From Candidatus Gottesmanbacteria bacterium (GTDB taxonomy: Bacteria > Patescibacteriota > Microgenomatia > UBA10105 > UBA927), in NCBI GenBank assembly GCA_963701185.1, contig OY969569.1, positions 34,865-98,864 on the forward strand: a stretch of DNA of 64,000 nt. The letters run 5' to 3'. Positions 20,809-57,753 of this stretch are shown piece after piece; position 1 is the first letter of the stretch; the number at the start of each line of letters is the position of its first letter. The position numbers and the translations under genes were made by a program. Under the pieces are notes generated by a model that had not been told where the DNA came from, ran no database searches, and was given only the letters and a program-made list of their open reading frames with translations.

Positions 20809-20825
20809 ATCCAAGTCCCGCAGCA
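20809..20825 (+). repeat. 17-bp direct repeat, copy 2 (partial tRNA 3'-end duplicate, attR-like)
   Basis: Perfect ATCCAAGTCCCGCAGCA without an upstream tRNA body; immediately precedes the AT-rich gene block. Confidence 0.7.
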
Positions 20826-20852
20826 AAGTCGGAAGAAGAATCAATAATTCGT

Positions 20853-21704: not shown

Positions 21705-21730
21705 GTGATTATCTAAAATTAATATCATAT

Positions 21731-22006
21731 ATGAACACTTTTTTAATATCATTTGAAATATTTGCCCCATCTCTCCCAGTGCAAGAGGGAATACTTATTA
21801 ATGCAATAAAATCTTTCGGTTCTTGGGCCAGGCCAACATCAAAAATATGGTTAATTAAAACCTATTTGACAAGGGAACAGGTTATGGGCAATTTGAGGTC
21901 CCAAGCAGGACCGAACGACAGTATACTTGTGATGTTAGTAAGTAATGATTGGATTGCAATTAATTTGCCAAATGACGTTATCAATTGGATGAAATCAGGA
22001 CTATAA
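21731..22006 (+). CDS. Hypothetical protein (AT-rich island)
   Basis: 91-aa ORF, no recognised domain; same strand and composition as the PIN-like gene. Confidence 0.3.
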   Translation: MNTFLISFEIFAPSLPVQEGILINAIKSFGSWARPTSKIWLIKTYLTREQVMGNLRSQAGPNDSILVMLVSNDWIAINLPNDVINWMKSGL

Positions 22007-22041
22007 CGATCATAAGGTCCGCAATCGGCCCACTCAGCAGA

Positions 22042-22260
22042 ATGAAACTCGGGAAATATCAGCATTCGAAAACGGGAAGATATTATCAAGTCCTTGGTGT
22101 AGCAAAACACTCCGAAACACTTGAAGAATTTGTGGTGTATAAAGCGTTATACGATAACCCCAAAGGGAAGCTGTGGATACGGCCGTTGAGCATGTTTTTG
22201 GAAAAGGTCTTAATAAAAGGGAAGAAAGTACCGCGTTTCAAGTTTGTGAAAATGGTATAG
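22042..22260 (+). CDS. DUF1653 family protein
   Basis: MKLGKYQHSKTGRYYQVLGVAKHSETLEEFVVYKALYDNPKGKLWIRPLSMF matches the DUF1653 pattern; start may instead be 21985. Confidence 0.55.
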   Translation: MKLGKYQHSKTGRYYQVLGVAKHSETLEEFVVYKALYDNPKGKLWIRPLSMFLEKVLIKGKKVPRFKFVKMV

Positions 22261-22290
22261 TATATGTATATGGCGAAAGGAGAAAAAAAT

Positions 22291-22497
22291 ATGAAAGATA
22301 TGAAAGATTGTTGCGGTGGGAAGAAAATGACGCCGGCCGTCGGCGGGGGAGCGGTGTATGGATTGGGATGTATCGGGGCGGCGGTGTATTTTATCCAGCA
22401 CGCGGCGAATTTTGGTGACGGAATATTCGGAGTCCTCAAAGCAGTCGTTTGGCCGGCACTGCTTATCTACAAAGTGCTTGGACTGCTAAACATATAA
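22291..22497 (+). CDS. Small hydrophobic membrane protein
   Basis: AGGAG 8 nt upstream; MKDMKDCCGGKKMTPAVGGGAVYGLGCIGAAVYFI... Gly-rich TM. Confidence 0.4.
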   Translation: MKDMKDCCGGKKMTPAVGGGAVYGLGCIGAAVYFIQHAANFGDGIFGVLKAVVWPALLIYKVLGLLNI

Positions 22498-43357: not shown

Positions 43358-45013
43358 ATGAAAAAAGTTTTTATTTTCCTCCTTTCCCTTTTTGTTTTCG
43401 TGTTCCCGCGCGCTGCGTACGCCTCTGGCGTAGAGCATATTCAAAGTTACGACACGAATGTTGTCATCCAAAAAGACGGGATAATACAGGTTAAAGAGCG
43501 CATCGAATATTTTTTTGATTCCCCGCGGCACGGCATATTCAGAAATATCCCCCTCATAAAAACAAATGACAGCGGCAAAAAATATGAAATGATTCTTTCT
43601 GATATATCGGTGACCGACGACAAAGGGGCGGGCTATTCGTTTACCCAAGTCAGGGAAGGGGATACGGAAGTACTTAAGATAGGCGATGCGGACAAAACCA
43701 TTTCAGGAACGCATTGGTACGTGATTTCATATACGGTTTCCGGCGCGCTCACGTATTTTCCCGGTCATGATGAGCTGTATTGGAATGCGGTCGGTAATCA
43801 GTGGCAGGTGCCAATTGGGAACGCAACAACCACGGTGACACTCCCGCAGGCGGTTGCCCGTGCTGATCTGAATGCCAAATGCGATGTGTGCAGTATGTTT
43901 TTTACGGATACGTCGGTTACGTTTACCGCAACGAGACCGCTTCAGCCGTATGAAGGCATGACCATTGCTGTCGGGTTTCCCAAAGGCATGGTCGCGGTTT
44001 TGGAGCCCAAAGAAGTTGTCCCGTTTTTTTCTACGATAGCAGGAAAAATGACGCTTGTTCTGTTGGCTCTTGCAGCCCTTTTCTGGTATCTGGTTGCTCC
44101 CTTTTTGGTTATCCGAAAATGGTGGAAGTATGGCCGCGATCCGAAACCCGCAATGGGCGAGGTTTCGGCGTGGTTTTCGCCCCCGAAAACGAAAAAATTG
44201 CGCGACCTCACACCCGCGGAAACGGGGACGCTCGTTGACGAAATCGCAAACCTGCGGGATATCTATTCGACCATCGTTGATCTTGCCCGCCGCGGCTTTA
44301 TGAAAATAATTGAAAATAAAAAAGGAGACTATTCGTTTGAGAAGCAAAAGGATTGGGATAAAGATAAAACGCTTCAGCCGTTTGAGCTTGTGTTGTTACG
44401 TGCGATTTTTGAGGGAAAGGACCGCGTCAAGCTCAAAGACCTGGATCTGCACGAAATGTTTGAAACCGTCAAAAAGAAAATCTATGAGTCAATGGTTACC
44501 GGCGGATTTTTCCCGGAGGATCCGCAGAAAATCCGTACGAAATATTACATCCTGGCAGGGTTCGCGTTTATCACCGGAAACATGATCCTGTGCATCGTCG
44601 CGGCGGTTTTCGGCACGCTCATGCCCAGAAAAACGCTGTTTGGTGCCGAACAGGCGGCCGTGGGTAGATCACTCAAGAATTTTTTGGTAAGCCAGGACAA
44701 ACAGCTCGCGTTCCAGGCGAAAAACCAGATGATGTTTGAAAAACTCCTGCCGTATGCCATTGCATTCGGCGTTGAGAAAATCTGGGCCGCGCGGTTTGCC
44801 GATTTAGGTCTTAAACAGCCCACGTGGTACGTATCTGGGTCCGGCACCGCGTTTAATACCGTTATTTTTGCCAACAATCTCGGTCGTGCGGCTGCAGTCT
44901 CGTTTGCCTCGTCTATCACCTCGAAATCCTCGTCCGGCTTTTCCTCCGGTTTCTCCGGCGGGGGCGGTTTCTCCGGCGGCGGAGGAGGGGGAGGCGGCGG
45001 CGGAAGCTGGTAA
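43358..45013 (+). CDS. DUF2207 family membrane protein
   Basis: Signal peptide, conserved DUF2207 N-domain, two TM, Gly-rich C-terminus (SSGFSGGGGFSGGGGGGGGGGSW); AGGAG RBS. Confidence 0.6.
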   Translation: MKKVFIFLLSLFVFVFPRAAYASGVEHIQSYDTNVVIQKDGIIQVKERIEYFFDSPRHGIFRNIPLIKTNDSGKKYEMILSDISVTDDKGAGYSFTQVREGDTEVLKIGDADKTISGTHWYVISYTVSGALTYFPGHDELYWNAVGNQWQVPIGNATTTVTLPQAVARADLNAKCDVCSMFFTDTSVTFTATRPLQPYEGMTIAVGFPKGMVAVLEPKEVVPFFSTIAGKMTLVLLALAALFWYLVAPFLVIRKWWKYGRDPKPAMGEVSAWFSPPKTKKLRDLTPAETGTLVDEIANLRDIYSTIVDLARRGFMKIIENKKGDYSFEKQKDWDKDKTLQPFELVLLRAIFEGKDRVKLKDLDLHEMFETVKKKIYESMVTGGFFPEDPQKIRTKYYILAGFAFITGNMILCIVAAVFGTLMPRKTLFGAEQAAVGRSLKNFLVSQDKQLAFQAKNQMMFEKLLPYAIAFGVEKIWAARFADLGLKQPTWYVSGSGTAFNTVIFANNLGRAAAVSFASSITSKSSSGFSSGFSGGGGFSGGGGGGGGGGSW

Positions 45014-45020
45014 ATCTGGA

Positions 45021-45072
45021 TTTTGCAACATCTTGCAACATTTTGCAACATCTTGCAACATTGTGCAATATG
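45021..45072 (+). repeat. Tandem 10-bp repeats (TTGCAACATY x4 plus a degenerate fifth) upstream of fic
   Basis: ttTTGCAACATCTTGCAACATTTTGCAACATCTTGCAACATTGTGCAATATG; the last TTGCAA lies 17 nt before TAGATT, which ends 7 nt before the fic ATG. Confidence 0.8.
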
Positions 45073-45087
45073 CGGTAGATTGAAGAC

Positions 45088-46083
45088 ATGAAGTTTCCTC
45101 CGGTATACACGTACACTCCCGAAATAAAGCAATTACTCTATGATCTGGACGTTTTGAGAGCAGGTTATGAACTTCATCCTGTACCGGCTCTCTCGGTCGT
45201 CAATCTCCGACGCGCCTCGCTTCTTAAGAGCTCGCTTTATAGCGCGCGCATAGAAGGAAACCCTCTGGATGTTGGAGATGTAGATGATGTCCGTCCGAGT
45301 GATACTGATATTCATAAAATTGAAGTTGGGAATTTGGTTTCTGCATATGAGCAATTATCAGATATCATCGGGCAGAATGTGACACTTGATACACTCAAAA
45401 AGCTGCATGCCGTTGTGCTTCGGAATATTTCGGCAGACGCCGGTTATTTGCGTACGGAAGAATCTGCAATATATAACCAGGCAGGTACTGTTGTTTATCT
45501 CACACCTGCACCGCAAAACATTCGGACACTTTTAGACGCGCTGTGTGTTTATGTGAATGCTGCAAAAGATGCTGTTCCTGTCGCTTCGGGATTGACGCAT
45601 ATCTGGTTTGAGAAGATCCATCCGTTTTTGGACGGCAACGGCAGAGTCGGAAGATTACTGTCTGCCTATATCCTCAAAAAAGGCGGATACGACTTTAGCG
45701 GACTGGTCCCGTTTGAACAGTATCTGGATGAGCACCGCGATGACTATTATCATTTTTTGGGGCAGGATAGACAGGATGTGACTAGTTTTATAGAATTTTA
45801 TCTTACTGCACTTCTTTCGCAGGCAAAAATATCGCTTAAAATCGCATACGAGTTCGACGAGTCCGGTAAACCTGACACATATGCACAGTTAATGCCCCGC
45901 AGGGCAGAAATTATGAGACTCATCGAAGATCACAAGATTGTGACGTTTGATTTTCTTGCCCGAAGATTCCGGGCAGTAGCAGTCCGCACGCTTCACAATG
46001 ATCTCTCTCAACTTACCAAAGCCGGGTTGGTACAAAAAATGGGTTCCACACGGGGAGTGTGCTACACGGTAAAAGAAAAATGA
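45088..46083 (+). CDS. fic: Fic family protein (class II, with N-terminal inhibitory motif)
   Basis: Fic motif HPFLDGNGRVGR; [ST]xxxE[GN] inhibitory motif SARIEGN upstream; C-terminal wHTH-like tail. Confidence 0.85.
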   Translation: MKFPPVYTYTPEIKQLLYDLDVLRAGYELHPVPALSVVNLRRASLLKSSLYSARIEGNPLDVGDVDDVRPSDTDIHKIEVGNLVSAYEQLSDIIGQNVTLDTLKKLHAVVLRNISADAGYLRTEESAIYNQAGTVVYLTPAPQNIRTLLDALCVYVNAAKDAVPVASGLTHIWFEKIHPFLDGNGRVGRLLSAYILKKGGYDFSGLVPFEQYLDEHRDDYYHFLGQDRQDVTSFIEFYLTALLSQAKISLKIAYEFDESGKPDTYAQLMPRRAEIMRLIEDHKIVTFDFLARRFRAVAVRTLHNDLSQLTKAGLVQKMGSTRGVCYTVKEK

Positions 46084-46296
46084 GAAAATTCCCGTCTATA
46101 CTATTTATATATGGCCTACGAAGAGGGCAAAATAAGCATTGCGTTGTTTTGGATAGAGAAGTACCGGAGGTACAGGATCCGGTTCCTACGCTACAAGGGA
46201 GGTTTTATTTACAGCAAGTATTATTACCTGCCCTGGTGGATGGGAATTTTCTATAACCCCAAACCATCCCAAAAAGACTGAAATTCCGGCCGGGAT

Positions 46297-46968
46297 TTAT
46301 TTGCACGTCTCCGATTTTGTAAATCCCGCGGCCCGCGCCTCCGCTTCCGTACAAAACCACTCGTCGCCCTGAAATTTGAGAATTAAAACTCTGCCATAGC
46401 CCCAGCATTGAGGCAGGAAATAAATCTTTTCTCTTTGATTTGTATCATTATTGCCCTTAATTGTGCATGAAGGATTGGGAGGATCAGCTTGGGAACATTC
46501 AGAGCTGTAAATCCCGACATGGTTTTCCCGTGCGTACGTATTGGCCGCATCCATCCGTGTTTTTTGGCTTCCTCCTTCATTTCCGTATTCCCCAAATCCC
46601 GCGCGTACCATAACTTCATTAATGAGCACTCCGTTTTCATATACCAGGCTCATCACGCGGCGCCCGTACCGGTCAACCTCCGGCTCCCGCAGTTGTACCC
46701 GCTTGCCGAGGATAAGGGTGGATAGCGCCTGTTTTGCCTCTTTTCCATAGCAGTACGTGATGTCCGGCGCGTTGATGCCGTAAAGCCGGATCGGCTGGTG
46801 GTTTTCGATGATGAACGTATCCCCGTCAACAACCTCGATAACCTTTTCCCCTTTAAAGTACGGCAGGTTTCCTGCCGCCAGCGCCCCTCCGCCTATAGTT
46901 GCCGCCCCCAATGCCGCCACCAGCAACTTTTTCCATCTTGGAATTGTCCGTTTCTTTTTCCTCCTCAT
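46297..46968 (-). CDS. Thermonuclease (SNase-like) family protein
   Basis: Signal or TM, then VVDGDTF..RLYGINAP staphylococcal-nuclease motifs; Cys-rich C-terminal tail. Confidence 0.7.
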   Translation of the reverse strand: MRRKKKRTIPRWKKLLVAALGAATIGGGALAAGNLPYFKGEKVIEVVDGDTFIIENHQPIRLYGINAPDITYCYGKEAKQALSTLILGKRVQLREPEVDRYGRRVMSLVYENGVLINEVMVRAGFGEYGNEGGSQKTRMDAANTYARENHVGIYSSECSQADPPNPSCTIKGNNDTNQREKIYFLPQCWGYGRVLILKFQGDEWFCTEAEARAAGFTKSETCK

Positions 46969-47128
46969 ATCTCAAGTATATATATCCATCTTACGCCGAT
47001 TTGCAACTTTTTTCGATAGAATTTGTTGTCAAAACGGCTTAGATGGGTAGATACCCGGAACAATTCCGATTGTGAAGGGTATATCCTCAGGTTTGAAAAG
47101 TGTTTTTCGCAATTGAGGGATTCTAAGC

Positions 47129-48091
47129 CTAAGAGGTTTTAGAGCTATACAATTTAAAAAACGCTTCATTCATTTCCTCTTCTTTCCAACCCACTTGTCG
47201 TAATTTAACTTTTAAATCTGCCCATTTTTCTCCTACCGAAATATGGGCGGATATATATTTCATTAATTCTGGATTTGGTTGATAGTGAGATTGTTCCTGT
47301 TGAATAGGGTTGATACTTTGAGGAGAAGTTTGTATTACAGAGTCTTTTGATAATGGGATTTGTTTTCTGAGCCATGACGAAGCCACATCGACCCAATTAG
47401 GATTATTTTGACTATTAGAATTTAATGATCGGCCCAAATTTTCTTGTTCGACTTCCAGTAGTTTAATTAAATAATTTCTTCCGCATAATTGAACATTTGT
47501 ATCGTAGGCGACCTTCCGTGCAAAGCTCGTAAAATTACTATTAGTAAAAATTAGCGCATGGTCACAATGATGTACCGTTTTTCCTGTAAAGACTTCTTGT
47601 ACGGCACGCTCGTTAACATTGCCTTGCCAGCATTTTGCTTGGATCGCTGTACGTCTTCCATCTTTTATTATGATTAGATCTACACCTAGATCACCAGATT
47701 TACCAGTATGTTCAACTTGATAGCCTAAATTTTTATATAAAACCACTAACCGATTCTCAAACTCCGGTCCACTCATCTTATCGATATCAAATATTCCTGT
47801 TTTCGATAACTTATCACGCTGGTACTCTCTATAAATTAGGCGTAATACATATATTACGACGATGAGGATAATCAGAGGTAGGAGAGATGTAATGAGAGAT
47901 ACGACGCTAGCCGATCCACCAAATGCTGCAAGCAGAACAAAACCTACAAGAAGCATGGCAAGACCATTCTCGAGTGAATACTTTGAATTACGCTTATATC
48001 TACCTTGTCTAAACCAATTTTTACCGGAACCAAAGCCAAAATTGCCTAAACTATAGCCTCCAAATCCATAATTATTCCGTCTATAACTCAT
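47129..48091 (-). CDS. Membrane-anchored restriction endonuclease, Mrr_cat-like PD-(D/E)xK
   Basis: Gly-rich N-terminus, two TM, then GPEFENRLVVLYKNLGY..GDLGVDLII..AIQAKCW typical of the Mrr catalytic domain; AT-rich. Confidence 0.65.
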   Translation of the reverse strand: MSYRRNNYGFGGYSLGNFGFGSGKNWFRQGRYKRNSKYSLENGLAMLLVGFVLLAAFGGSASVVSLITSLLPLIILIVVIYVLRLIYREYQRDKLSKTGIFDIDKMSGPEFENRLVVLYKNLGYQVEHTGKSGDLGVDLIIIKDGRRTAIQAKCWQGNVNERAVQEVFTGKTVHHCDHALIFTNSNFTSFARKVAYDTNVQLCGRNYLIKLLEVEQENLGRSLNSNSQNNPNWVDVASSWLRKQIPLSKDSVIQTSPQSINPIQQEQSHYQPNPELMKYISAHISVGEKWADLKVKLRQVGWKEEEMNEAFFKLYSSKTS

Positions 48092-48132
48092 ATCTTAGGT
48101 ATAACACTTCAAGCGAATATATCAAAACATCG

Positions 48133-48159
48133 ACTCGCGAGTGTGAGGGGAGTATAATT
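48133..48159 (+). promoter_or_regulatory. Perfect 10-bp palindrome (ACTCGCGAGT) next to a TATAAT -10, putative operator/promoter of the RM gene
   Basis: Palindrome at 48133-48142; TATAAT at 48154-48159; ATG at 48172, so a very short leader. Confidence 0.45.
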
Positions 48160-48171
48160 TGAGTTGCTTCT

Positions 48172-51100
48172 ATGCAAAATATTTTTGACGACTATATTCA
48201 ATCAATTTCCTCTAAATTTTCCCATGAAGAAACTAGTGAAATGGGATACCGCACCGATTTTGAGATCTTAATCAAGGGGATTTTTGAATCAATTAACGTT
48301 AAGCGGATAGATCACGATGCGAAAGCTCAACAAGGGAATAAGCCGGATTTTGTTGTGCTCAATCACGACGTACCAATTCTTTATATCGAAGCAAAAGATA
48401 TTGGCGTATCTTTAGATAAAGTTGAGAAGTCTGAACAGATGAGCAGGTATTACGGATACGCAAATTTAATTCTTACGGATTACGTAGAGTTTCGTTTCTA
48501 TAGAAACGGTCAACGTTATGAAGATCCCATAAAGGTAGCAAATTATAAATTAAAAAATCGAACAATTACTCCTATTCCGGAAAATTATGAACATGCTTCA
48601 AAAACACTACTCGACTTCACGCAATCACATAAAGAGCCTATACGATCTGGTAAACATCTTTCAAAAATTATGGGTGGTAAAGCTCAAAGGATACGGGATA
48701 ATGTTCGATATTTTCTTTCTAGCGAGTCAGAAAAAAATGCTGAATTAGTGCGTGTTTATGAAACTATTAAAAAACTTCTGGTTCATGATCTTACACCAGA
48801 CACCTTTGCCGATATGTACGCGCAGACTCTCGTCTATGGTCTTTTTATCGCACGTTATTATGATGACTCACCAGATAATTTTACTCGTCAGGAAGCACGC
48901 GATCTTATACCGACGTCCAACCCACTTCTTAGACATTTTTTTGACCATATAGTGGGGCCAGATTTTGATAAACGGCTTGAGTATATCGTAAATGAGTTGT
49001 GTGAAGTTTTTTCTCACGCCAATATTCCAGAGCTAATGAGGGAATATTTCAAGGTTGATCTGTGGGGTAAGACGCATACGGGTCCGGATCCAGTCATTCA
49101 TTTTTATGAAGATTTTTTGAAAGAGTATGATGATGACCTGCGTAAAAAGATGGGTGCTTACTATACGCCATTACCAGTTGTGCAGTTTATTGTGCGCTCC
49201 GTTGATTATTTGCTAGAAAAAGAGTTCGGTCTTGCGGCTGGTTTAGCCGACACGTCTAAGACGGCATCTGGTGTTCACCGTGTTCAAATTCTTGATCCAG
49301 CCGTTGGGACAGGGACGTTTATAAGCGACGTTATAGGGAAAATCTATGCGCGGATATTGAAAGGTAGACAAGAAGGGCGTTGGCCAACATATGTGCACCA
49401 TGATTTACTTCCGCGTTTGCATGGTTTTGAACTGATGATGGCGCCGTATACGATAGCACATTTAAAACTGGGTATAGCTTTTAAACAAACCGGTTTTAAA
49501 TATTTCAATCGTCGTCTCGGTATTTACCTTACAAATTCTCTAGAAGGAGGACCTATACAGGGGGAAATGTTTACAGGCTTCGGTTTTGCAGAAAGCATTG
49601 CTGAAGAGGCAAAAGAAGCTTCAAAGATAAAAAATGAAAAGCCAATAATGGTTGTTGTTGGTAATCCGCCCTACAGCATTAGTTCCTCTAATAAAGGAGA
49701 GTGGATTTTAAATCTTATTAAGGACTATAAGAAAAATTTGCACGAACGGAAAATTAACCTTGACGACGATTATATAAAATTTATTCGTTTTGCCGAGCAT
49801 TTCGTAGAGAAGAACGGAAGCGGTGTCGTGGCGATGATTACCAATAATTCATTCGTTGATGGTATTACTCACCGTCAGATGAGAAAGCATCTACTCGAAA
49901 CATTTGACGATATTTATATACTTAACCTTCATGGCAGTTCTAAGAAAAAAGAAATAGCCCCCGATGGTGGTAAAGACGAGAATGTTTTTGACATTCAGCA
50001 AGGTGTTGCTATATCGATGTTTGTGCGTAAAGAAAAAGAGAAGAAAGGTCTTGGAATAGTTCACTACTCTGAAATTTATGGAAAGAGAGATGATAAATTC
50101 AAGGCCCTTGATGAAAGTAATTTACAAAAGATTAATTGGAAAAGTCTTGATTATTCAGAGCCGTATTATTTCTTTGCGCCAAAGGATTTCAGCGCAAATG
50201 AAGAATATAAGAAAGGATTTAAATTGGCCGATCTTTTTATGAACTACAATACTGGCATACAAACCAAAAGAGATAATTTGACTATCCAATTCGATGAAAG
50301 AAGTATTGAACAGGCAAAAGACGATCTAATTAATTTAGATGACAAAGCTCTTAGATTAAAGTATCGGCTTCCTGCTGATGGGAGGGATTGGACAATAGAA
50401 TCAGCTCGTAAAGATCTTATTAAAAATGACCCAGTAGTAGAGCGCATTCTTTATAGGCCCTTCGATACAAGATATACTTTATATACAGGTAAAACTAAAG
50501 GTTTTCTTGCTTATCCAAGGTCTGAAACATCAAGACACTTAATTGGTAAAGAAAATATCTCCCTCATTACTCTTCGATTAAATGGAGAAAATGAAAAATT
50601 TGTAATTCTGCAGACAAAATATTTAATAGAAAAAGGGTCTCTTGCCTCAGGAAATTATTCCTTTTTTCCTTTATATTTATACGAAGATGGTGGATTAAAA
50701 ATAACAAATCTCAAAAAAGAAATTATCGACGAGATAGAAAAAATCGTTGGAAAAGTTTCTCCGGAAGACATTTTTGATTACATTTACGCCGTTCTTCATT
50801 CGCCAAGATATCGAGAAAAATACAAGGAATTTCTAAAAATAGATTTTCCGCGTGTGCAGTATCCGAAAAACGTCGAAAGTTTCAAAAAACTCGTTTCCTT
50901 CGGAGCAGAGTTGCGCTCACTTCACCTTCTCGAATCACCGAAAGTAAACCAATTAATCACGACTTATCCTGTGGCCGGATCAGACATGATTGAAAAGTTA
51001 ACTTATAAAGACGGCAAGGTGTTTATCAATAAAGACCAGTATTTTGGCGATGTTCCAGGATTAGCATGGAATTTCTACATCGGCGGCTATCAGCCTGCAC

Positions 51101-51231
51101 AAAAGTGGCTTAAAGATCGCAAGAATAGAGTTCTAACTAACGCAGACATTGAACACTATCAGAAAATGATTGTTGCGTTGGCGGAGACGGGAAGAATTAT
51201 GAAGAAAATAGATCTAATTGCACAATTTTGA
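48172..51231 (+). CDS. Type IIG (MmeI-like) restriction-modification enzyme, fused endonuclease and N6-adenine methyltransferase
   Basis: N-terminal PD-(D/E)xK-like D..KPDFVV..IEAKDIG resembling MmeI; methyltransferase motif I (LDPAVGTGTF) and motif IV VGNPPYS; long C-terminal target-recognition region; 1019 aa. Confidence 0.8.
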   Translation: MQNIFDDYIQSISSKFSHEETSEMGYRTDFEILIKGIFESINVKRIDHDAKAQQGNKPDFVVLNHDVPILYIEAKDIGVSLDKVEKSEQMSRYYGYANLILTDYVEFRFYRNGQRYEDPIKVANYKLKNRTITPIPENYEHASKTLLDFTQSHKEPIRSGKHLSKIMGGKAQRIRDNVRYFLSSESEKNAELVRVYETIKKLLVHDLTPDTFADMYAQTLVYGLFIARYYDDSPDNFTRQEARDLIPTSNPLLRHFFDHIVGPDFDKRLEYIVNELCEVFSHANIPELMREYFKVDLWGKTHTGPDPVIHFYEDFLKEYDDDLRKKMGAYYTPLPVVQFIVRSVDYLLEKEFGLAAGLADTSKTASGVHRVQILDPAVGTGTFISDVIGKIYARILKGRQEGRWPTYVHHDLLPRLHGFELMMAPYTIAHLKLGIAFKQTGFKYFNRRLGIYLTNSLEGGPIQGEMFTGFGFAESIAEEAKEASKIKNEKPIMVVVGNPPYSISSSNKGEWILNLIKDYKKNLHERKINLDDDYIKFIRFAEHFVEKNGSGVVAMITNNSFVDGITHRQMRKHLLETFDDIYILNLHGSSKKKEIAPDGGKDENVFDIQQGVAISMFVRKEKEKKGLGIVHYSEIYGKRDDKFKALDESNLQKINWKSLDYSEPYYFFAPKDFSANEEYKKGFKLADLFMNYNTGIQTKRDNLTIQFDERSIEQAKDDLINLDDKALRLKYRLPADGRDWTIESARKDLIKNDPVVERILYRPFDTRYTLYTGKTKGFLAYPRSETSRHLIGKENISLITLRLNGENEKFVILQTKYLIEKGSLASGNYSFFPLYLYEDGGLKITNLKKEIIDEIEKIVGKVSPEDIFDYIYAVLHSPRYREKYKEFLKIDFPRVQYPKNVESFKKLVSFGAELRSLHLLESPKVNQLITTYPVAGSDMIEKLTYKDGKVFINKDQYFGDVPGLAWNFYIGGYQPAQKWLKDRKNRVLTNADIEHYQKMIVALAETGRIMKKIDLIAQF

Positions 51232-51252
51232 GTATTAAAAATAGGAAGTAAA

Positions 51253-51462
51253 ATGATTAGACAACCGGTTACATCATCAGATTTAGCAAGTGTTGGATAC
51301 GATAATGAAGGAAAGATTCTTGAGATAGAATTTAATTCTGGTCAGGTCTATCAATATTTTGCTGTTCCAGAATATATTTATGAGGGCTTGATGAACGCGA
51401 CTTCTCATGGAAAGTATTTTAATCAGGAGATAAAAGATAACTATCAATTTCAAAAACTTTAA
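51253..51462 (+). CDS. KTSC domain protein
   Basis: [49 protein letters not shown] matches the KTSC domain pattern. Confidence 0.6.
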
Positions 51463-51463
51463 A

Positions 51464-53086
51464 ATGAGGATAAGAACAGTTGTAATAAAGAATTATAAAT
51501 GCATAGGTCCTGATCAAATCACAATTGATTTTTCTGAAAATATTGTTGTTTTAATTGGTGAAAACAACGTGGGAAAATCGGCAATTTTAGGCGCGTTAGA
51601 TTATTTTTTCTCCGGAATTAAAACATTGCCACCTGAGCATTTTTATAACAAGCAGAACGATTTTGAGCATGCGATTACAATCACGATTACCTTTTGCGAT
51701 TTGACTCCTGGAGACAAAGCGCATCAAGCTGTTAGTCCCTATATAACGACCCAAGGAAGCGAAAAGCTATGGATATTAAGGAAAGTCTATTACTACGATG
51801 CCGATGGTAAATCTAATTGCGATCACATAGCTATTGTTAACGGTGAAGAGAAAAGAAATCCGGCAGGATTAACTCAAAATCCAAACGATTTATTTACGGA
51901 GGAGAAGATGCAAAAAATATTTATTGAAGCCGTAAAGGACGTTAAAGAAGTGGTCGACGGCGGGCCAAAAACCCCGTTTAATCAAATATTTAATTTAATT
52001 TTAAGAGAAGATTTAGAACAAACCCCACAATACGCAACACTTTTGTCAGCATTAACAGCCTATGGGCAATTATTCCAAGGAGCTACGCAATTAACTAAAA
52101 TAAAGGATTTGGAAACGTCTATAACACAAAAGTTATCACGAACAATAATTGCGACAAGTAAGATTAAGGCAGAGTCTCCAAAAGCTGATAAATTACTTCC
52201 GATACCAAAGTTGACAACGAATGACGGTAGAATAATTGATGTTGATCCGTCCGAACAAGGACATGGTTTACAAAGATCAATAATATTTGCGTTGCTTGAA
52301 ATGTTAGCAGAAACAAATAGCCCGATAGACAAAGATGTTGGGCCTAATAACTTATTACTTATTGAAGAACCAGAAATATATATGCATCCCCAAATGGAAC
52401 GAAAAATCGCAGATACTCTATATGAGATTGCATCATCCGGAAAGGCTCAGGTAATATGTACGACACATTCTCCGATTTTTATTAGAATTGCGGATAAACA
52501 CAAAGCTATGGTTAGATTAGTAAGAAATGATGATGTTTTGAAGGCCATTCAAAGAAGTGATGTTTTTTCTGGGGATGACAGAGAGGAAAAAAGAAAGCAA
52601 TTAAGGATGATTACTAATTTTGACCCCACCGTTAACGAAATATTTTTTGCTAAAAGAATTGTTTTAGTAGAGGGTGATACAGAAGTAGCGGTATTTAGGG
52701 AGGCTGCAGAATTATTGAATTATTTTGAATCAGAAGTGAATAAACATAAAAAAAGAGATACAACATTTGTAAATTGCAGAGGCAAATGGACGATTAATTT
52801 ATTCCAAGAAGTGTTGAATCATTTTGATATTGATTATGTTGTTATTCATGATAAGGATGGTGAGGCTCTTGATGAGGGCGCAAATGGGAAGATTTTAACT
52901 TTGTTGAGCAATATTGAGGATAGACGTAGGTATTTTGATGATAAAATTGAAACAGTAATTGGGATAAGAGATGTTGGAAGCGAGAAACCAATTAGGGCTC
53001 TTGAACGAATTAATCAACTTCATGATGAGGGTGGTTTAGAACATGCGTTTGGAAGTTTTATAAAATTCGCATATGATATAGTTTAG
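51464..53086 (+). CDS. OLD-family ATP-dependent endonuclease (AAA_15/21 ATPase plus TOPRIM)
   Basis: Walker A GENNVGKS, ICTTHSP H-loop-like segment, C-terminal TOPRIM (RIVLVEGDTE ... HDKDGE, DxD). Confidence 0.75.
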   Translation: MRIRTVVIKNYKCIGPDQITIDFSENIVVLIGENNVGKSAILGALDYFFSGIKTLPPEHFYNKQNDFEHAITITITFCDLTPGDKAHQAVSPYITTQGSEKLWILRKVYYYDADGKSNCDHIAIVNGEEKRNPAGLTQNPNDLFTEEKMQKIFIEAVKDVKEVVDGGPKTPFNQIFNLILREDLEQTPQYATLLSALTAYGQLFQGATQLTKIKDLETSITQKLSRTIIATSKIKAESPKADKLLPIPKLTTNDGRIIDVDPSEQGHGLQRSIIFALLEMLAETNSPIDKDVGPNNLLLIEEPEIYMHPQMERKIADTLYEIASSGKAQVICTTHSPIFIRIADKHKAMVRLVRNDDVLKAIQRSDVFSGDDREEKRKQLRMITNFDPTVNEIFFAKRIVLVEGDTEVAVFREAAELLNYFESEVNKHKKRDTTFVNCRGKWTINLFQEVLNHFDIDYVVIHDKDGEALDEGANGKILTLLSNIEDRRRYFDDKIETVIGIRDVGSEKPIRALERINQLHDEGGLEHAFGSFIKFAYDIV

Positions 53087-53090
53087 TCGC

Positions 53091-53849
53091 ATGTCTCAAT
53101 ACTACAATCCCCATCGCGTAAAGAATAAGTATGAGGAGGGTGCAACTGAGTTGTTCAGGCTCAGCCGGTCGAAGGTGGATCTGTTTATCAACTGCCCGAG
53201 GTGCTTTTATCTGGACCGCAAGCTTGGGGTGGGGCAGCCGCCGGGGTATCCGTTTTCGCTTAATTCAGCCGTTGATAAGCTCTTGAAGAAAGAATTTGAT
53301 ATCCACCGGGCGAAGGGGACGCGGCATCCCTTGATGGAGCATTACGGCATTGATGCGATACCGCTTGCGCATGAAAAGATGAATGAGTGGCGCGATGCGC
53401 TGCGCGGGGGGATTACGTTTCAGATTGAAGGATCGAACGTAGTCGTGACCGGAGGAGTTGATGACGTGTGGTTGGCGCCTAACGGAGAGTATTATATCGT
53501 CGATTACAAAGCGACGTCCAAGGATGCGGAGGTCACGCTGGATGCTGACTGGCAAATAGGCTACAAGCGGCAGATGGAAATATACCAGTGGCTGTTCCGG
53601 AAGAACGGATTTCGGGTGTCCGATACCGGATATTTTGTGTATTGCAACGGGAATACCGACAAGAAGGCGTTTGACGGGAAATTGGAGTTTGATATCAAAA
53701 TTATTCCCTACGTTGGCGACGATTCGTGGGTTGCGGGAACGATCCATGATGCGATTAAATGCTTGCAAAGCGAGCACTTACCTGCGTCGGGGGCGGATTG
53801 TGATTATTGCAAATACAGGAAAGCGGTACGGCCGTTTGAAACTGCCTAA
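53091..53849 (+). CDS. Cas4/RecB-like PD-(D/E)xK nuclease with Fe-S cysteines
   Basis: N-terminal CPRC, core VDDVW...IVDYKAT (D..D/E-x-K), C-terminal C-x12-C-x2-C (CLQSEH..ADCDYC); GC about 52%, unlike its AT-rich neighbours. Confidence 0.6.
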   Translation: MSQYYNPHRVKNKYEEGATELFRLSRSKVDLFINCPRCFYLDRKLGVGQPPGYPFSLNSAVDKLLKKEFDIHRAKGTRHPLMEHYGIDAIPLAHEKMNEWRDALRGGITFQIEGSNVVVTGGVDDVWLAPNGEYYIVDYKATSKDAEVTLDADWQIGYKRQMEIYQWLFRKNGFRVSDTGYFVYCNGNTDKKAFDGKLEFDIKIIPYVGDDSWVAGTIHDAIKCLQSEHLPASGADCDYCKYRKAVRPFETA

Positions 53850-53883
53850 CCTATCTCTATATTTTTATCCGCATTTTGGTATC

Positions 53884-54516
53884 ATGTTGGTAATGCTCGT
53901 ATTTATTGATGATTCAGGAGATCCCGGATTTAAACTCGATAGAGGTTCCAGCCCCGTCTTTGTTATTTCCCTCACCATTATTGATGATAATTTGGAAGCA
54001 GAAAAAACATCGGTTGCGATAAAAGAGTTGCGCCGGAAATTGAAAGTACATGATGCATATGAGTTTAAGTTTAATAATTGCCATAAACGTTTCAAGAATG
54101 CATTTTTTTCTGCAGTATTACCGTTTATCTTTCGTGTCCGGGCGATAGTGGTAAAAAAATCCGTCATACGAAGTACGCATCTGCAAACTCATAAAGAAAA
54201 TTTTTATAACTATATTGTGATGCAGGTATTGAAACATAGTGTTGGTTCCGTCAAATCAGCGAGGTTAAAGTTTGATAAACGCGGTGAAAAAGCGCTTCGT
54301 AACGAGTTGCGGGTGTATTTGAGTTCAGAACTTGATAATAAACATAAGAATGTATTTACCGACTTCAAATTTGTTGATTCAAAACAAAACACACTTATTC
54401 AACTTGCGGATATGATAGCAGGTGCAATATTTGCGGCGTATTCGCGAAAAGACTCATCCTATGTTAATAAATTGCGGAAAGCGAAAAAGATTGAGGATAT
54501 TTGGGAGTTTCGATAA
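53884..54516 (+). CDS. DUF3800 family protein
   Basis: MLVMLVFIDDSGDPG N-terminus and QLADMIAGA motif characteristic of DUF3800. Confidence 0.6.
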   Translation: MLVMLVFIDDSGDPGFKLDRGSSPVFVISLTIIDDNLEAEKTSVAIKELRRKLKVHDAYEFKFNNCHKRFKNAFFSAVLPFIFRVRAIVVKKSVIRSTHLQTHKENFYNYIVMQVLKHSVGSVKSARLKFDKRGEKALRNELRVYLSSELDNKHKNVFTDFKFVDSKQNTLIQLADMIAGAIFAAYSRKDSSYVNKLRKAKKIEDIWEFR

Positions 54517-54681
54517 AAAAATCGACCCTCATTCCTATCCAAACGTTAGTTTGGAACGCGCACCATACGGTGACAATTCGGAATAAGGGTCTTTGTATAT
54601 GTAGTATAGCACGATTGTTACGACGTATCCACTTTGGGTTATTGTAACAATATATCTGTATACTTGACACAAGTTTGGGGA

Positions 54682-55119
54682 TTAATAGATAAATGGAATA
54701 AGGCGGCGGGTGCGGGATTTGTACTCCGAATAGCCTTTGAATTTAACAGGAAGGAGTTGTTCTTCGACTGATATTTTCTTCAGCAGTACCACGGTTTCAA
54801 GAAGAAATATTGTGAACCGCACCCACGTAAAGGAATCCAACACCAGCGCCCCAAAACCGAAAATGAGTGCCGTGTACATGGGATTGCGGATGAAGCGGTA
54901 GGGGCCGGTTGAGAGAAGATGAGCATTGCGGGCCGGTTCGGGGTCAACGCGGAACGTGCTTTTCCTCAGCATCGTCGTCACCGCCCATGCGCCCAGGGCG
55001 ATGGCCAGAAGTTCGATACCCAGAAGATAAATGTTTTTTGCCACAAGCGGGCCGGAGATAAGGAAAAGGAGAATGAATAATTTTTGTAAAAATACAAGTA
55101 ACGATGACTTATATTTCAT
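54682..55119 (-). CDS. Isoprenylcysteine carboxyl methyltransferase (ICMT/PEMT) family membrane protein
   Basis: Multi-TM; GPYRFIRNPMYTALIF (RHPxY-like) motif. Confidence 0.7.
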   Translation of the reverse strand: MKYKSSLLVFLQKLFILLFLISGPLVAKNIYLLGIELLAIALGAWAVTTMLRKSTFRVDPEPARNAHLLSTGPYRFIRNPMYTALIFGFGALVLDSFTWVRFTIFLLETVVLLKKISVEEQLLPVKFKGYSEYKSRTRRLIPFIY

Positions 55120-55154
55120 CCTACACTAAGGATACCACGTTCGTGTACACTGAT

Positions 55155-55385
55155 AGTATGGAAAATCAGATAACGATTGCGGTGTGGGTGATCGCAATCC
55201 TCGTAAGTTTCGTTCCCATGCCCCTGATGTATAAAATCATCGGGATTATCGCTTGTATCATCCTGATCGCGTGGATGACGTATATGGCGCACCGGAATAA
55301 CCGTTTGTCCGCGTTGTCGCTCGTTATTAACCTCCTTATCATCGGCTGGGATCTGGCCGTCGTCTACATGGCGCTGACCCGGTAA
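55155..55385 (+). CDS. Small membrane protein, hypothetical
   Basis: Two TM helices; start uncertain (ORF begins 55104). Confidence 0.35.
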   Translation, partial: SMENQITIAVWVIAILVSFVPMPLMYKIIGIIACIILIAWMTYMAHRNNRLSALSLVINLLIIGWDLAVVYMALTR

Positions 55386-55439
55386 GCCGGACGCCGATAT
55401 CCGATTATTTACACGGAATAGACCGGCGGATATAATGAA

Positions 55440-55856
55440 ATGACAATGGCCATGCAACCTGCGCCTGTAAAAAAGATACTTATCGTCGAGGATGACAAGT
55501 ATCTGCGTGATTTGTACATCGAAATTCTTGAAGATGAAGGATTTTTTGTAGAAAACGCCGCAGACGGCGAAGAAGGGTATAAAAAAATCTTTCATGGCGG
55601 ATACGACCTGGTGCTTCTGGACCTCATGCTCCCCAAGATGGACGGATTGACGATACTGCAGAAGATTCAGAAGGAAACGCTGCCGATACAACCGAACAAA
55701 ATGATTGTTGTCCTTTCCAATCTCGGACAGGAGACAACAGTTGCCAAAGCCATCGCTCTCGGTGCGCGGGCATACATGATTAAAAGCGACTATTCACCAA
55801 ATCAGGTTATTTACAAGATCAAGAAATACCTTGCATCAGTCCCAGCGGCAGAGTAA
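55440..55856 (+). CDS. Single-domain response regulator (CheY-like receiver)
   Basis: KKILIVEDD, phospho-acceptor LLDLMLP, conserved Lys region; no output domain. Confidence 0.8.
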   Translation: MTMAMQPAPVKKILIVEDDKYLRDLYIEILEDEGFFVENAADGEEGYKKIFHGGYDLVLLDLMLPKMDGLTILQKIQKETLPIQPNKMIVVLSNLGQETTVAKAIALGARAYMIKSDYSPNQVIYKIKKYLASVPAAE

Positions 55857-57084
55857 ACGCAAATGTGGTGCCAAACCCAGGTTCACTTTTAACGAGTGCA
55901 ACATCTCCCCGCATAAGTTGAGCCAATTTTTTGGATATATAAAGGCCCAAACCGGTGCTCTTCGTCGGAACCAGCGGGTGAGTTTCCTTGATTTGCCCGA
56001 AGCGTTTGAACAGTAAGCCCTGCGATTCCCGTGATATGCCGCTGCCGGTATCCGTTATTGTCGTCGCGAAGGTTGAGCCCGTGATTGCATGCGTTATGGT
56101 CACTCCGCCACGAATCGTATACTTCAGGCCATTCCCAATCAGATTCGATAACACTTCTGCCGCCTTTGTACGATCCGCAACCACCATACGCTCGGAAATA
56201 TTTATTTCGTGATGAACATACAGATTACGTTCGCGGGCCAAGAGCGCAAGATTGTCAATGACCTCGTCGGTAAGGGTGACAATATCAAACTTCTCGGCTT
56301 TTATTTCTAGCCTGCCCTGATCAATCCGTGAAATGTCTAGGAACTCATTGACGAGTCGTACCAGATGCTCCGATGTTTCATCGGTCCTTCGCAAGTGTTC
56401 TATAATTTTTTCCCGCGGCAAGATCTCAAATTTCTCCAAAAGAAGCGATACAGTCATCCGGATAATGGTAAGCGGTGTACGCAGTTCGTGGGCCGCGGCA
56501 GAAAAGAATGCCTGTTCTTCTCTCACCCGGGCCGCCTGTTTACTGTTGTCCTCGAACATAAATATAACAGCTGCGACCATCTGACCCGTCATGAGGGGTA
56601 GTATTGTACCGCTCACGGGGAATGCCCCGCGCTGGCTGACCAACTCACTATTGTCAGGCAAATGCTGTGTTTTTCCGGCAAAGGCTGCTTCAAACAATGC
56701 ATAATTATCCGCCTCACCCGCTGCGCGAATATGAAACACCTCTTTGTACGACATCCCCACCTCGGTAGCAAAATCCAGGAATTTTTTTGCCTGTTCATTC
56801 ATGAGTCTCACAACACGGTTCTGATCTATAATGATCACGGCACGGTCCATCTGGGTAATAACGAGACCGGCGTATTTTTCGTACTCGCTGGCGCCCTGCA
56901 CGGTTTTGAATTTTTCAGCCTCTAACCCTGCCTGTGTTTTAGCTGCGGCAAGATCGCGTTTCAAGCTTTTGATTTGGTTTTCATACTGTTTCTTTTTACG
57001 GTGCTGCAAGAACAGTATTATTCCCACTGAGGCAAGCGCAAAAAATAGAAAAATACCCAGAATATAGAGAAGGATGAAGGACAT
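55819..57084 (-). CDS. Sensor histidine kinase
   Basis: N-terminal TM, H-box AAHELRTPLT, HATPase_c with GTGLGLYISKKL G2 box; converges on and overlaps the response regulator by 38 bp. Confidence 0.85.
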   Translation of the reverse strand: MSFILLYILGIFLFFALASVGIILFLQHRKKKQYENQIKSLKRDLAAAKTQAGLEAEKFKTVQGASEYEKYAGLVITQMDRAVIIIDQNRVVRLMNEQAKKFLDFATEVGMSYKEVFHIRAAGEADNYALFEAAFAGKTQHLPDNSELVSQRGAFPVSGTILPLMTGQMVAAVIFMFEDNSKQAARVREEQAFFSAAAHELRTPLTIIRMTVSLLLEKFEILPREKIIEHLRRTDETSEHLVRLVNEFLDISRIDQGRLEIKAEKFDIVTLTDEVIDNLALLARERNLYVHHEINISERMVVADRTKAAEVLSNLIGNGLKYTIRGGVTITHAITGSTFATTITDTGSGISRESQGLLFKRFGQIKETHPLVPTKSTGLGLYISKKLAQLMRGDVALVKSEPGFGTTFAFTLPLGLMQGIS

Positions 57085-57186
57085 AGTACCGCGTAAGGGA
57101 GTCGGACCCTTGTTGATAGATTGAGAATCTACCGTACTAACCGTTATACGAACGCGGCGACTGAAGCTAATTTTACCAGCTTAGTC

Positions 57187-57215
57187 TTGACATAGCAACA
57201 CAAATAGGGTACAAT
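57187..57215 (+). promoter_or_regulatory. Sigma70-like promoter (TTGACA, 17 nt, TACAAT) upstream of greA copy 2
   Basis: Consensus -35 with exact 17-bp spacer. Confidence 0.55.
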
Positions 57216-57235
57216 TTTTTAGTATTTATTAACCG

Positions 57236-57273
57236 CTCCCTAGATCCTATCCGACCGTAGGGAGGTTTTTTTT
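57236..57273 (+). promoter_or_regulatory. Leader hairpin plus T8 (terminator-like) between the promoter and the greA-2 ATG
   Basis: CTCCCTA-15 nt-TAGGGAG stem followed by TTTTTTTT; the 3' arm overlaps a strong SD-like AGGGAGG that sits 20 nt from the ATG. Confidence 0.4.
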
Positions 57274-57285
57274 GATTAGAGATTT

Positions 57286-57753
57286 ATGGAACCAAACGGT
57301 AAAGTTCTCCTGACAAAAGAAGGTTTGCAGGAGCTTAAAAAAGAATATTCCGAACTGACCACGGTAAAGCGGCCCGTTGCGGTGCAGCGCCTTTCCGATG
57401 CCCGCGAGCTCGGAGATCTGTCCGAAAACAGCGAATATGCGGCAGCCAAACAGGATTTATCATTCATTGACGGACGGATTCTGGAACTTGAGGAAATTAT
57501 CCACGGCGCCAAACTTATTTCCGGAAACCACACGAAAAGCATGGTGGACGTGGGATGTAAAGTCATCCTGCATGTTGACGGTAAAAAAGAAGAGTTTATG
57601 CTGGTCGGCGAATGGGAAGCAGATCCTAAAGAGAAGAAAATCTCCCACGAGTCACCGCTCGGGAAGGCTCTCATGGGTAAAAAAGTCGGAGACCGCGTGG
57701 AAGTAGAGGCCCCGGCAGGTAAAATTCTCTACAAAATCCTCGGTATTGAGTAA
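57286..57753 (+). CDS. greA: Transcription elongation factor GreA (copy 2)
   Basis: GreA N-terminal coiled coil (GDLSENSEYAAAKQ) and C-terminal FKBP-like domain; 155 aa. Confidence 0.85.
   Translation: MEPNGKVLLTKEGLQELKKEYSELTTVKRPVAVQRLSDARELGDLSENSEYAAAKQDLSFIDGRILELEEIIHGAKLISGNHTKSMVDVGCKVILHVDGKKEEFMLVGEWEADPKEKKISHESPLGKALMGKKVGDRVEVEAPAGKILYKILGIE

Follow-up and report, generated by a model that had tools for sequence, protein, structure and literature searches.

A probable composite defence island of four modules beside tRNA-Glu in a Gottesmanbacteria-like genome

Positions 47129–54516 of a 64,000-nucleotide stretch of contig OY969569.1, assigned to a Candidatus Gottesmanbacteria bacterium (this whole stretch is called the window below), hold a block of six protein-coding genes that is most probably a horizontally acquired, composite defence island, lying in a replaceable 12 kb segment next to a tRNA-Glu gene. 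Its four modules would be a membrane-tethered Mrr_cat nuclease; a type IIG restriction-modification enzyme; a cassette of a KTSC protein, an OLD ATPase-TOPRIM and a Cas4-like nuclease; and a DUF3800 protein with a small RNA gene, most of them with promoter-like sites of their own. The features of a genomic island that are present are an atypical composition and absence from the syntenic site of a related genome (locus L001), whereas signatures of integration are limited to adjacency to the tRNA and a break in homology at that tRNA. The block reads as modular rather than as one system because OLD, the DUF3800–RNA pair and the type IIG enzyme each recur separately elsewhere. All six proteins fall into known families and the RNA into a curated Rfam family, and the island as such is ordinary; genomes of the candidate phyla radiation (CPR) carry many defence systems per Mb (PMC12259885).

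Composition and insertion site of the block

Base composition sets the block apart from its surroundings. In order along the block, the GC contents of the Mrr_cat, type IIG, KTSC, OLD, Cas4-like and DUF3800 genes are 0.367, 0.372, 0.319, 0.350, 0.507 and 0.365, compared with 0.480 ± 0.039 for the 48 other genes of the window. Five of the six (32–37% GC) thus deviate by z = -2.8 to -4.2, and their GC at third codon positions lies 2.5–4.0 standard deviations below background, while the Cas4-like gene stands at +0.7. Taken as a whole, the 7.4 kb block has a GC of 0.378, the lowest non-overlapping 7.4 kb window elsewhere having 0.438, and its tetranucleotide correlation to background is 0.60–0.65 vs 0.883 ± 0.034 outside. 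The foreign composition and the mosaic pattern are far beyond chance. An earlier sequence-only reading of this DNA had proposed exactly this, namely a low-GC block gained by horizontal acquisition and made mosaic by a GC-richer Cas4-like gene, and it holds: the composition is foreign, the syntenic relative lacks the block, and the Cas4-like gene (50.7% GC) is host-like and comes from a separate, highly conserved subfamily. The six open reading frames (ORFs), their positions and the plus-strand gaps of 21, 1, 4 and 34 bp are likewise as described there. So are the family assignments, all of which Pfam and PADLOC profile searches uphold with two labels, MmeI-like and Cas4-like, qualified below; five of the six proteins match PADLOC models. 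The description of six immunity-type genes stands as regards a defence-type cluster but goes too far for KTSC, which is an accessory partner of OLD and not an immunity gene itself. Five of the six proteins are singletons in 90% clusters among ~15 billion sequences, and one contig of 995,214 bp carries all six.

The host is a CPR bacterium, Gottesmanbacteria-like, with a genome of ~1 Mb, which is the usual size for this radiation. The lysyl-tRNA synthetase (LysRS) of the window shares 76% identity with its counterpart in Candidatus Gottesmanbacteria RIFOXYB1_FULL_47_11 (L001), and the next-best matches are from other Patescibacteria. Comparison with L001 delimits a variable, non-syntenic segment of ~12 kb (45014–57158), bounded by a DUF2207 gene on the left and by the 5' end of tRNA-Glu on the right, that contains in order a Fic gene, a staphylococcal-nuclease-type (SNase) gene, the low-GC block, an ICMT-like gene, an unknown gene, a histidine kinase gene and the tRNA; the low-GC block is the core of this replaceable segment. 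The left flank is kept in L001 (bla-like, TspO, an unknown gene and DUF2207), as is the right flank (the tRNA-Glu(CTC) promoter, a homologue of 57276–57674, LysRS, RdgB and further genes). Between DUF2207 and its own tRNA-Glu, L001 has only a 184-residue ORF, and tblastn of eleven window genes (45088–57084) against that site gave no matches, an absence that rests on one relative at the LysRS identity given above. The synteny comparison that the sequence-only reading had called for therefore finds the block missing and the flanks kept, but shows the variable part to be larger than the block. The Fic, SNase, ICMT-like, unknown and kinase genes around the block have a GC that is host-like or nearly so.

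The right-hand end of the replaced segment is the tRNA-Glu(CTC) gene (57086–57158, minus strand; ARAGORN and Rfam). Homology to L001 resumes exactly at its 5' end, such that, in comparison with the L001 tRNA (7033–7107) and its surroundings, the 40 nt upstream are ~95% identical and the tRNA body only ~55%. The window tRNA is atypical, with a T-loop TCCGACT (C at position 55), a G1-U72 pair and an AT-richer D-arm, whereas L001–L004, which share the arrangement tRNA, unknown gene, LysRS, have a canonical tRNA-Glu with T-loop TTCGAAT or TTCAATT. It looks as if the tRNA had been replaced along with the neighbouring 12 kb. A scan of viral sequences with the tRNA-Glu T-arm gave no matches.

How did the segment arrive? 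One hypothesis sees in the block the leftover cargo of a mobile element (an integrative and conjugative element, plasmid or satellite) that had integrated at tRNA-Glu and was later stripped of its genes for integration and transfer. The block does lie on the 3' side of the tRNA, homology breaks exactly at the 5' end and the tRNA copy is atypical; moreover, the Cas4-like protein has an 81% identical homologue in an element with type IV secretion system (T4SS), relaxase and FtsK genes, and the KTSC-OLD pair of locus L166 stands beside serine recombinase and Rep genes. However, no integrase, transposase, relaxase or att-type repeat is found in 45014–57158, and a search of 44900–57300 for flanking direct or inverted repeats of at least 14 nt, or for a duplicated tRNA fragment, returned only short matches at chance level. 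The composition of the segment is also mixed, with host-like SNase, ICMT-like, kinase and Cas4-like genes next to five low-GC genes, which indicates more than one event. For these reasons we regard a single integrated element as a rather unlikely origin, and an island assembled from modules as the better description.

Several further features of the segment and its surroundings were observed. Five head-to-tail 10-nt units AT(T/C)TTGCAAC (45020–45069), spaced by one helical turn between the DUF2207 stop and the Fic start, may be an operator array. The Fic/DOC gene that follows (45088–46083) combines a Fic domain with an HVO_A0114-like winged-helix tail, and the staphylococcal-nuclease homologue (46297–46968) has a C-terminal 'sunset' domain; both have near-host GC and are absent from L001. 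On the right flank, LysRS (57771–59861) bears a C-terminal extension of ~220 residues (477–696) that full-length alignment shows to be common to its closest relatives and that scores 26.6 bits against HDIG (threshold 27.6). The KTSC domain is named after LysRS C-termini, and kinship between the KTSC protein of the block and this neighbouring LysRS was considered; it was rejected, the extension being HDIG-like (sub-threshold) and not KTSC. The records of L001–L004, L008 and L011 are titled 'uncultured Gammaproteobacteria' or 'Pseudomonadales' despite their CPR-matching LysRS and synteny, and these titles are probably labelling or binning errors. Elsewhere in the window, a second low-GC patch (20501–22300, down to 0.27 GC) adjoins tRNA-Gln(CTG) at 20589–20660 and carries the gene of a 283-residue PIN_12-domain protein (20853–21704) between the Obg GTPase and lactate/malate dehydrogenase genes.

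The OLD gene and its partners

The OLD gene (51464–53086, plus strand) encodes a protein of 540 residues that matches AAA_15 (E 3.8e-38, residues 1–340), OLD-like_TOPRIM (E 1e-15, residues 394–465) and the PADLOC model Old (E 2.7e-74). Its motifs are a Walker A sequence GENNVGKS at 32, LLLIEEPE at 297, VEGDTE at 402 and HDKDG at 462, and the Walker A and Walker B motifs, E403/E407 and D463/D465 are invariant across 33 homologues, which places the protein in the OLD family. Among PDB structures the closest is the Class 1 OLD of Thermus scotoductus (TsOLD, 6p74). Like the Class 1 enzymes P2 Old, TsOLD and Vc OLD, the window protein combines an ABC-ATPase with a TOPRIM domain, and the lengths are close (540 vs 528 residues). 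Class 1 OLD has been defined as a solitary gene (PMC10568477), and one such solitary enzyme, from Vibrio, acts against phage by nicking DNA (PMC12392090). The window OLD has no UvrD, reverse transcriptase (RT) or AriB partner. What distinguishes its clade from the Class 1 OLDs is that it recurrently has a KTSC gene upstream, a Cas4-like gene downstream or a DUF2130 gene nearby.

Other multi-gene OLD systems were compared and set aside. Gabija (GajA-GajB, Class 2) likewise has an OLD followed by a second DNA-processing enzyme, and many GajA models of PADLOC match the window OLD with E down to 1e-36; however, the best model is Old and not GajA, the TOPRIM domain lacks the Class 2 insert length, and the partner is a 252-residue PDDEXK_1 nuclease where Gabija has the UvrD-like GajB. 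With no adjacent UvrD/PcrA-like helicase, membership of Gabija was rejected. The retron OLDs (Class 3) and PARIS (Class 4) were rejected as well, there being neither an RT nor a retron RNA, and the model retron_eff_Eco8 scoring 82.9 bits against a cut-off of 250.

A protein search brought up more than 60 members of this OLD clade with identities of at least 42%. Homologues of the window OLD at 55–71% identity were found in eight other contexts, in which every neighbourhood is different and none includes a type IIG or DUF3800 gene. These contexts comprise a place beside DUF2130, two in type I restriction-modification (RM) operons, one by AbiEii, RadC and an SLFN helicase, one before an Mrr_cat-nSTAND3 gene, and one beside serine recombinase and Rep protein genes (L166, with KTSC). 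DUF2130 adjoins OLD or is one gene away in three of the eight (L081, 6831–7943; L165, 7689–8828; L187, 3490–5004) and may be a third recurrent partner. Metagenomes scanned with the OLD alignment returned mostly distant OLDs at 20–35% identity, with two members of the close clade only, and the scan of viral sequences for the clade gave distant or partial matches only.

Directly upstream lies the KTSC gene (51253–51462, plus strand, 69 residues), which matches its Pfam family with E 9.9e-27. In the PDB it matches 7x8c and also HerA of SIR2-HerA, there in the C-terminal arm (8wiv residues 628–695, E 2.1e-19). The junction with OLD is extremely short in each case: TAA-A-ATG in the window, TAAATG in L165 (OLD 68% identical) and TAATG in L166 (59%). 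These are the three of eight clade contexts with upstream sequence in which KTSC directly precedes OLD. In two loci with distant, 620-residue OLDs, L143 (522–3465) and L156 (4634–8006), KTSC is also upstream with a small WYL gene in between, and the order KTSC, WYL, OLD is continued there by a conserved protein of ~343 residues that matches no family and whose two copies are 72% identical. Is this pairing simply a by-product of how common KTSC is? Free-standing KTSC of ~69 residues (45–64% identical) is common in viral contigs of IMG/VR, with 214 matches confirmed by tblastn, but none of the 80 loci retrieved from these had an OLD-profile ORF within 4 kb. KTSC-OLD as a general phage feature was rejected on this basis, and the result indicates that the pairing is specific and not a consequence of KTSC abundance. 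In SIR2-HerA of Paenibacillus, KTSC is the arm at the C-terminus of the HerA ATPase (PMC11472057), and its occurrence next to genes for HerA and endoDNase has also been described (PMC9503650). These HerA cases set a precedent for KTSC acting as an accessory to NTPases of defence systems, and KTSC accompanies such an NTPase in both settings; in SIR2-HerA it is fused to the hexamer, whereas in the window it is a free-standing protein of 69 residues beside an ABC-type OLD. No published link between KTSC and OLD was found in a literature search.

On the other side of OLD, the Cas4-like gene (53091–53849, plus strand, 252 residues) encodes a PD-(D/E)XK nuclease with a match to PDDEXK_1 (E 1.8e-14) and weak Cas4 matches. 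Two cysteine pairs, C35/C38 and C237/C240 (CxxC...CxxC), flank the domain, which contains VDD at 123 and VDYK at 137. The protein shares with Cas4 and the AddB-type RecB-family nucleases the PD-(D/E)XK core and the four flanking cysteines. It differs from Cas4 in the CxxC...CxxC arrangement of the cysteines and in its score of 34 bits against the NCBIfam cas4 model TIGR00372 (cut-off 65); there are no cas1/cas2 genes nearby and no CRISPR-like repeats or array in the window, so that Cas4 proper was rejected. The label used in the sequence-only reading is thus right about fold and superfamily and not about Cas4 itself. A member of the Cas4-like family follows OLD in three of nine clade contexts (window, L165 and L085). 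The post-OLD proteins of L165 (213 residues) and L085 (229 residues) are 44% identical to each other (E 2e-60) and 22–25% identical to the window protein over the full length with both CxxC pairs kept, and in L185 a PDDEXK_3 protein occupies the same position.

The gene trios of L165 and L085 are uniformly low in GC (0.29–0.40). The window subfamily, by comparison, shows 77–85% identity across more than 100 clusters, many of them labelled Gottesmanbacteria, and some members of the family are fused to FtsK_gamma. The 81% homologue mentioned above (P0304) ends an operon of an N6_N4_Mtase, a ResIII helicase, a 176-residue and a 702-residue protein in L194 (1–20677; JGI Ga0334813_000003), a CPR-type contig whose Replic_Relax/relaxase, FtsK/SpoIIIE, T4SS pilin and TraC/TraG-like ATPase genes look conjugative; DNA similarity to that locus is confined to the Cas4-like gene (53143–53849). 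Judged by sequence, the window protein appears to be a divergent, host-GC allele in a recurrent post-OLD slot. Two histories are conceivable. An ancestral low-GC KTSC-OLD-Cas4-like cassette may have had its third gene swapped for an allele from a mobile element; alternatively, the Cas4-like and OLD genes may have been joined by chance in a slot that such nucleases often fill.

With respect to function, the OLD ATPase-TOPRIM would nick or degrade invading or replicating phage DNA as Class 1 OLDs do, and the Cas4-like nuclease could process the DNA ends that OLD leaves. The KTSC protein, translationally coupled to OLD, might serve as a nucleic-acid-binding or regulatory subunit by analogy with HerA.

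The DUF3800 gene and its convergent RNA

The last gene of the block (53884–54516, plus strand, 210 residues) encodes a DUF3800 protein (PF12686, E 3.2e-18, 67.3 bits vs cut-off 21) and matches the PADLOC candidate model PDC-M04A; no literature on the candidate PDC-M04 was found. Homologues of 207 residues align from an in-frame ATG at 53893, which suggests that the true start may lie 9 nt downstream, giving a protein of 207 residues and a gap of 43 bp to the preceding gene. This family of ~207 residues is abundant in Microgenomates (62–74% identity). Modelling predicts an RNase HII-like fold, reproducing the RNase H-like fold described for DUF3800 (PMC10910872).

The sequence-only reading overlooked an RNA gene that follows on the opposite strand. 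DUF3800-IX RNA (54520–54591, minus strand, 72 nt; Rfam RF02968) reaches 66.5 bits where the gathering score is 36.8, is convergent with DUF3800 and starts 4 nt after its stop codon; its structure is a 12-bp closing stem round two hairpins, then a U-run. A permissive Rfam scan of 44900–57300 found only this RNA and the tRNA. The RNA is present at the same position and strand, with 64–68 bits, in four further loci (L188, L189, L190 and L191, representing three independent contexts and one variant of the third), abutting or overlapping the DUF3800 stop codon on the opposite strand, so that the geometry is seen in all five loci including the window. Seven of 26 base pairs show compensatory changes (four sequences). 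The strand of the RNA is fixed by two invariant U-G pairs, which would turn into A-C mismatches if the complementary strand were read.

Does the RNA have a promoter of its own? On the minus strand at 54603–54631 lies TGGATA-17-TATACT with a TGn extended -10. In the alignment of the window, L188, L189 and L190 (L191 was left out), the -10 box reads TATACT, TACAAT, TATAAT and TATAAT, at a constant 11 nt from the first base of the stem, and three of the four have the TGn extension. Conservation starts at the DUF3800 ATG and ends just past the -10 box, defining a 0.76 kb unit that occurs in unrelated contexts. A -10 box conserved at the very edge of conservation argues that DUF3800-IX RNA has its own predicted promoter. 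The neighbours of the pair elsewhere are toxin-antitoxin genes, NYN, RE_BsaWI with a methyltransferase, DndB, and helix-turn-helix/ImmA-type genes, contexts that fit a role in defence or in mobile elements.

DUF3800 genes have been linked to eleven unrelated RNA motifs of unknown function (Weinberg et al. 2017, PMC5737381). The window has both partners of such a pair and does not differ in kind from the known pairs of DUF3800 with the DUF3800-I to -XI RNAs. New for motif IX are the convergent, stop-abutting geometry (5/5 loci), the conserved -10 box (4/4) and the placement in defence islands. A proposed mode of action is that the RNase HII-like nuclease would be bound by the convergent RNA, which would restrain or direct it in a toxin-antitoxin-like or guide-like arrangement. 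The convergent overlap would also permit antisense control of the 3' end of the DUF3800 mRNA.

Restriction-type modules and the organization of the island

The plus-strand cluster begins with a type IIG/IIL restriction-modification gene (48172–51231, 1019 residues) that matches the PADLOC model REase_MTase_IIG with E 4.7e-278 and 923.6 bits. The protein joins an N-terminal PD...ExK nuclease (an HSDR_N-like match; PDFVV at 58, IEAKD at 72), a gamma-class N6-adenine methyltransferase (DPAVGTG at 375, NPPY at 498; N6_Mtase and Eco57I matches) and a Type_ISP_C specificity domain (687–1011, E 4.4e-80). The presence of nuclease, methyltransferase and specificity domain in one polypeptide is what defines types IIG and IIL. 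The closest PDB structure is DrdV (7lo5, E 1.2e-44, residues 311–922); LlaBIII and LlaGI also match, the alignment being confined to the methyltransferase and target recognition domain (TRD) part. The enzyme resembles DrdV and the Borrelia proteins BBQ67 and BBE02 in being a single chain of ~1,000–1,090 residues with a PD-ExK nuclease, an NPPY methyltransferase and a C-terminal specificity domain; for bbe02 and bbq67, a role as restriction barriers has been demonstrated genetically (PMC4466376). It differs in its identity of only 36–42% to any annotated relative. Plasmid enzymes reach 36–42% over 99% of the length, among them the B. burgdorferi lp56 enzyme with 35.6%. By this homology, the window enzyme would recognize an asymmetric site, methylate adenine within it and cleave DNA that lacks the modification at a set distance from the site.

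Three other assignments for this enzyme were rejected. The sequence-only reading had called it MmeI-like, which is right in that it is a type IIG single chain and loose otherwise: MmeI_Mtase alone matches (31.3 bits), without the MmeI_N, MmeI_hel, MmeI_TRD or MmeI_C domains, so the MmeI family in the strict sense does not apply, and the Type_ISP_C domain and the nearest solved structure, DrdV, point elsewhere. Type ISP enzymes have a superfamily 2 helicase-like ATPase between nuclease and methyltransferase and about 1,400–1,600 residues; the window protein has 1019 residues and no ATPase/helicase match. Membership of bacteriophage exclusion (BREX) systems as a PglX was dismissed at 26.5 bits against a cut-off of 400.

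Divergent from this gene, the Mrr_cat nuclease gene (47129–48091, minus strand, 320 residues) matches Pfam Mrr_cat over the full profile (E 1.5e-24). The protein consists of a basic, Gly/aromatic N-tail, two transmembrane (TM) helices at ~41–87 (hydropathy peak 2.8), the nuclease domain at 103–212 with intact motifs (GDLGVDLI at 133, IQAKCW at 150), and a C-tail without a family match. By the positive-inside rule, the N-tail and nuclease domain are both predicted to be cytoplasmic, and the enzyme would cut DNA at the inner membrane face. Its relatives are single 'restriction endonuclease' genes on many Firmicutes plasmids, and no Mrr-like gene neighbours the homologues of the type IIG enzyme in the two plasmid contexts available, a small sample. 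Like EcoKMrr and the type IV enzymes, the protein has an Mrr_cat PD-(D/E)XK domain with intact D...QxK motifs. However, a TM hairpin takes the place of the winged-helix Mrr_N reader of EcoKMrr, and Pfam finds neither Mrr_N nor another modification-reading domain. The PADLOC matches are to the ZorD nuclease domain (64 bits), to PDC-S02 and, weakly, to mREase_IV (19.7 bits).

This bears on a concern raised by the sequence-only reading, which saw a compatibility problem between a modification-dependent Mrr enzyme and an N6-methyladenine (m6A)-forming neighbour. The concern lacks support: with a TM hairpin and no reader domain, and with ZorD (64 bits) scoring well above type IV (19.7 bits), modification dependence cannot be inferred for this protein, and without any sign of m6A-dependent cleavage neither can a conflict. 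The type IIG enzyme itself has a related PD-ExK nuclease.

A fundamental question for the organization of the block is whether its plus-strand genes act together. In the 80 bp spacer between the two divergent genes (48092–48171), promoter-like sites stand back to back with overlapping -10 boxes: TCGACT-17-TATAAT on the plus strand (48130–48158, 10/12 matches) and TTTGCA-16-TATACT on the minus strand (48178–48151), both as consensus matches only. Promoter-like sites lie upstream of the type IIG gene and of the DUF3800 gene, and no intrinsic terminator-like sites were detected between the plus-strand genes. One hypothesis is that the five plus-strand genes are one operon that encodes a single defence system of interdependent parts, as the tight gaps and the missing terminators would allow. 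However, OLD homologues occur in eight neighbourhoods without a type IIG or DUF3800 gene, DUF3800 and its RNA are found without OLD or the Cas4-like gene, homologues of the type IIG enzyme stand alone on plasmids, the Cas4-like gene is 15 GC points off its neighbours, and internal promoter-like sites precede type IIG and DUF3800; a single interdependent system is quite improbable. That the genes serve nucleic-acid scavenging or repair in a nucleotide-auxotrophic CPR cell is less credible still, since the adjoining secreted SNase-type nuclease (46297–46968), the membrane tether of the Mrr_cat nuclease and the strong conservation of the Cas4-like protein among CPR genomes, which would suit that role, are set against five compositionally foreign genes that are singletons at 90% identity, the absence of all the genes from L001, the match of the families to curated defence models and the occurrence of homologues among RM, abortive infection and toxin-antitoxin genes.

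The reading of the block as a composite defence island of four modules has to be weighed against several points. With no intrinsic terminators found between them, all five plus-strand genes may be co-transcribed. KTSC and the Cas4-like nuclease are facultative partners of OLD, at three of eight and three of nine contexts in a small sample, and KTSC often occurs without OLD, as the viral loci show. The single relative shows that the region is variable and gives no clean empty site, and no integrase, att repeat or duplicated tRNA fragment points to a mode of acquisition. Finally, we infer every activity and every protein–protein and protein–RNA interaction.

A further-reaching hypothesis, which we put forward only tentatively, is that KTSC-OLD-Cas4-like is a distinct multi-gene OLD system, amounting to a new class of OLD, and, at the same time, that DUF3800 with its RNA is an RNA-controlled, RNase HII-like abortive-infection or interference module. 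For the former, the small KTSC protein would bind nucleic acid and gate or target OLD, the Cas4-like nuclease with its Cys cluster would be a co-effector, and the partner slot would tolerate distant alleles; the partner-gene evidence suggesting this comes from the sequences of few contexts.

The present analysis adds to what had been read from this DNA the identity of the host, the 12 kb segment with its atypical tRNA-Glu, the RNA with its promoter, the predicted RNase HII-like fold, and the evidence for OLD partners with a probable replacement of one allele. The island is a compact, well-delimited example in an ultra-small genome. Within it, a supposedly solitary, Class-1-like OLD shows recurrent coupled partners in KTSC and a Cas4-like nuclease, and a partner slot in which an allele of that nuclease family has a deviating composition points to exchange between CPR mobile elements at the level of cassettes. 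The geometry of DUF3800-IX RNA, its own predicted promoter, its RNase HII-like neighbour and its setting in defence islands support a role in immunity and suggest antitoxin-like or guide-like control. If both of these readings are true, they would provide candidates for the regulation of 'solitary' OLD nucleases and for the role of the DUF3800 RNAs.

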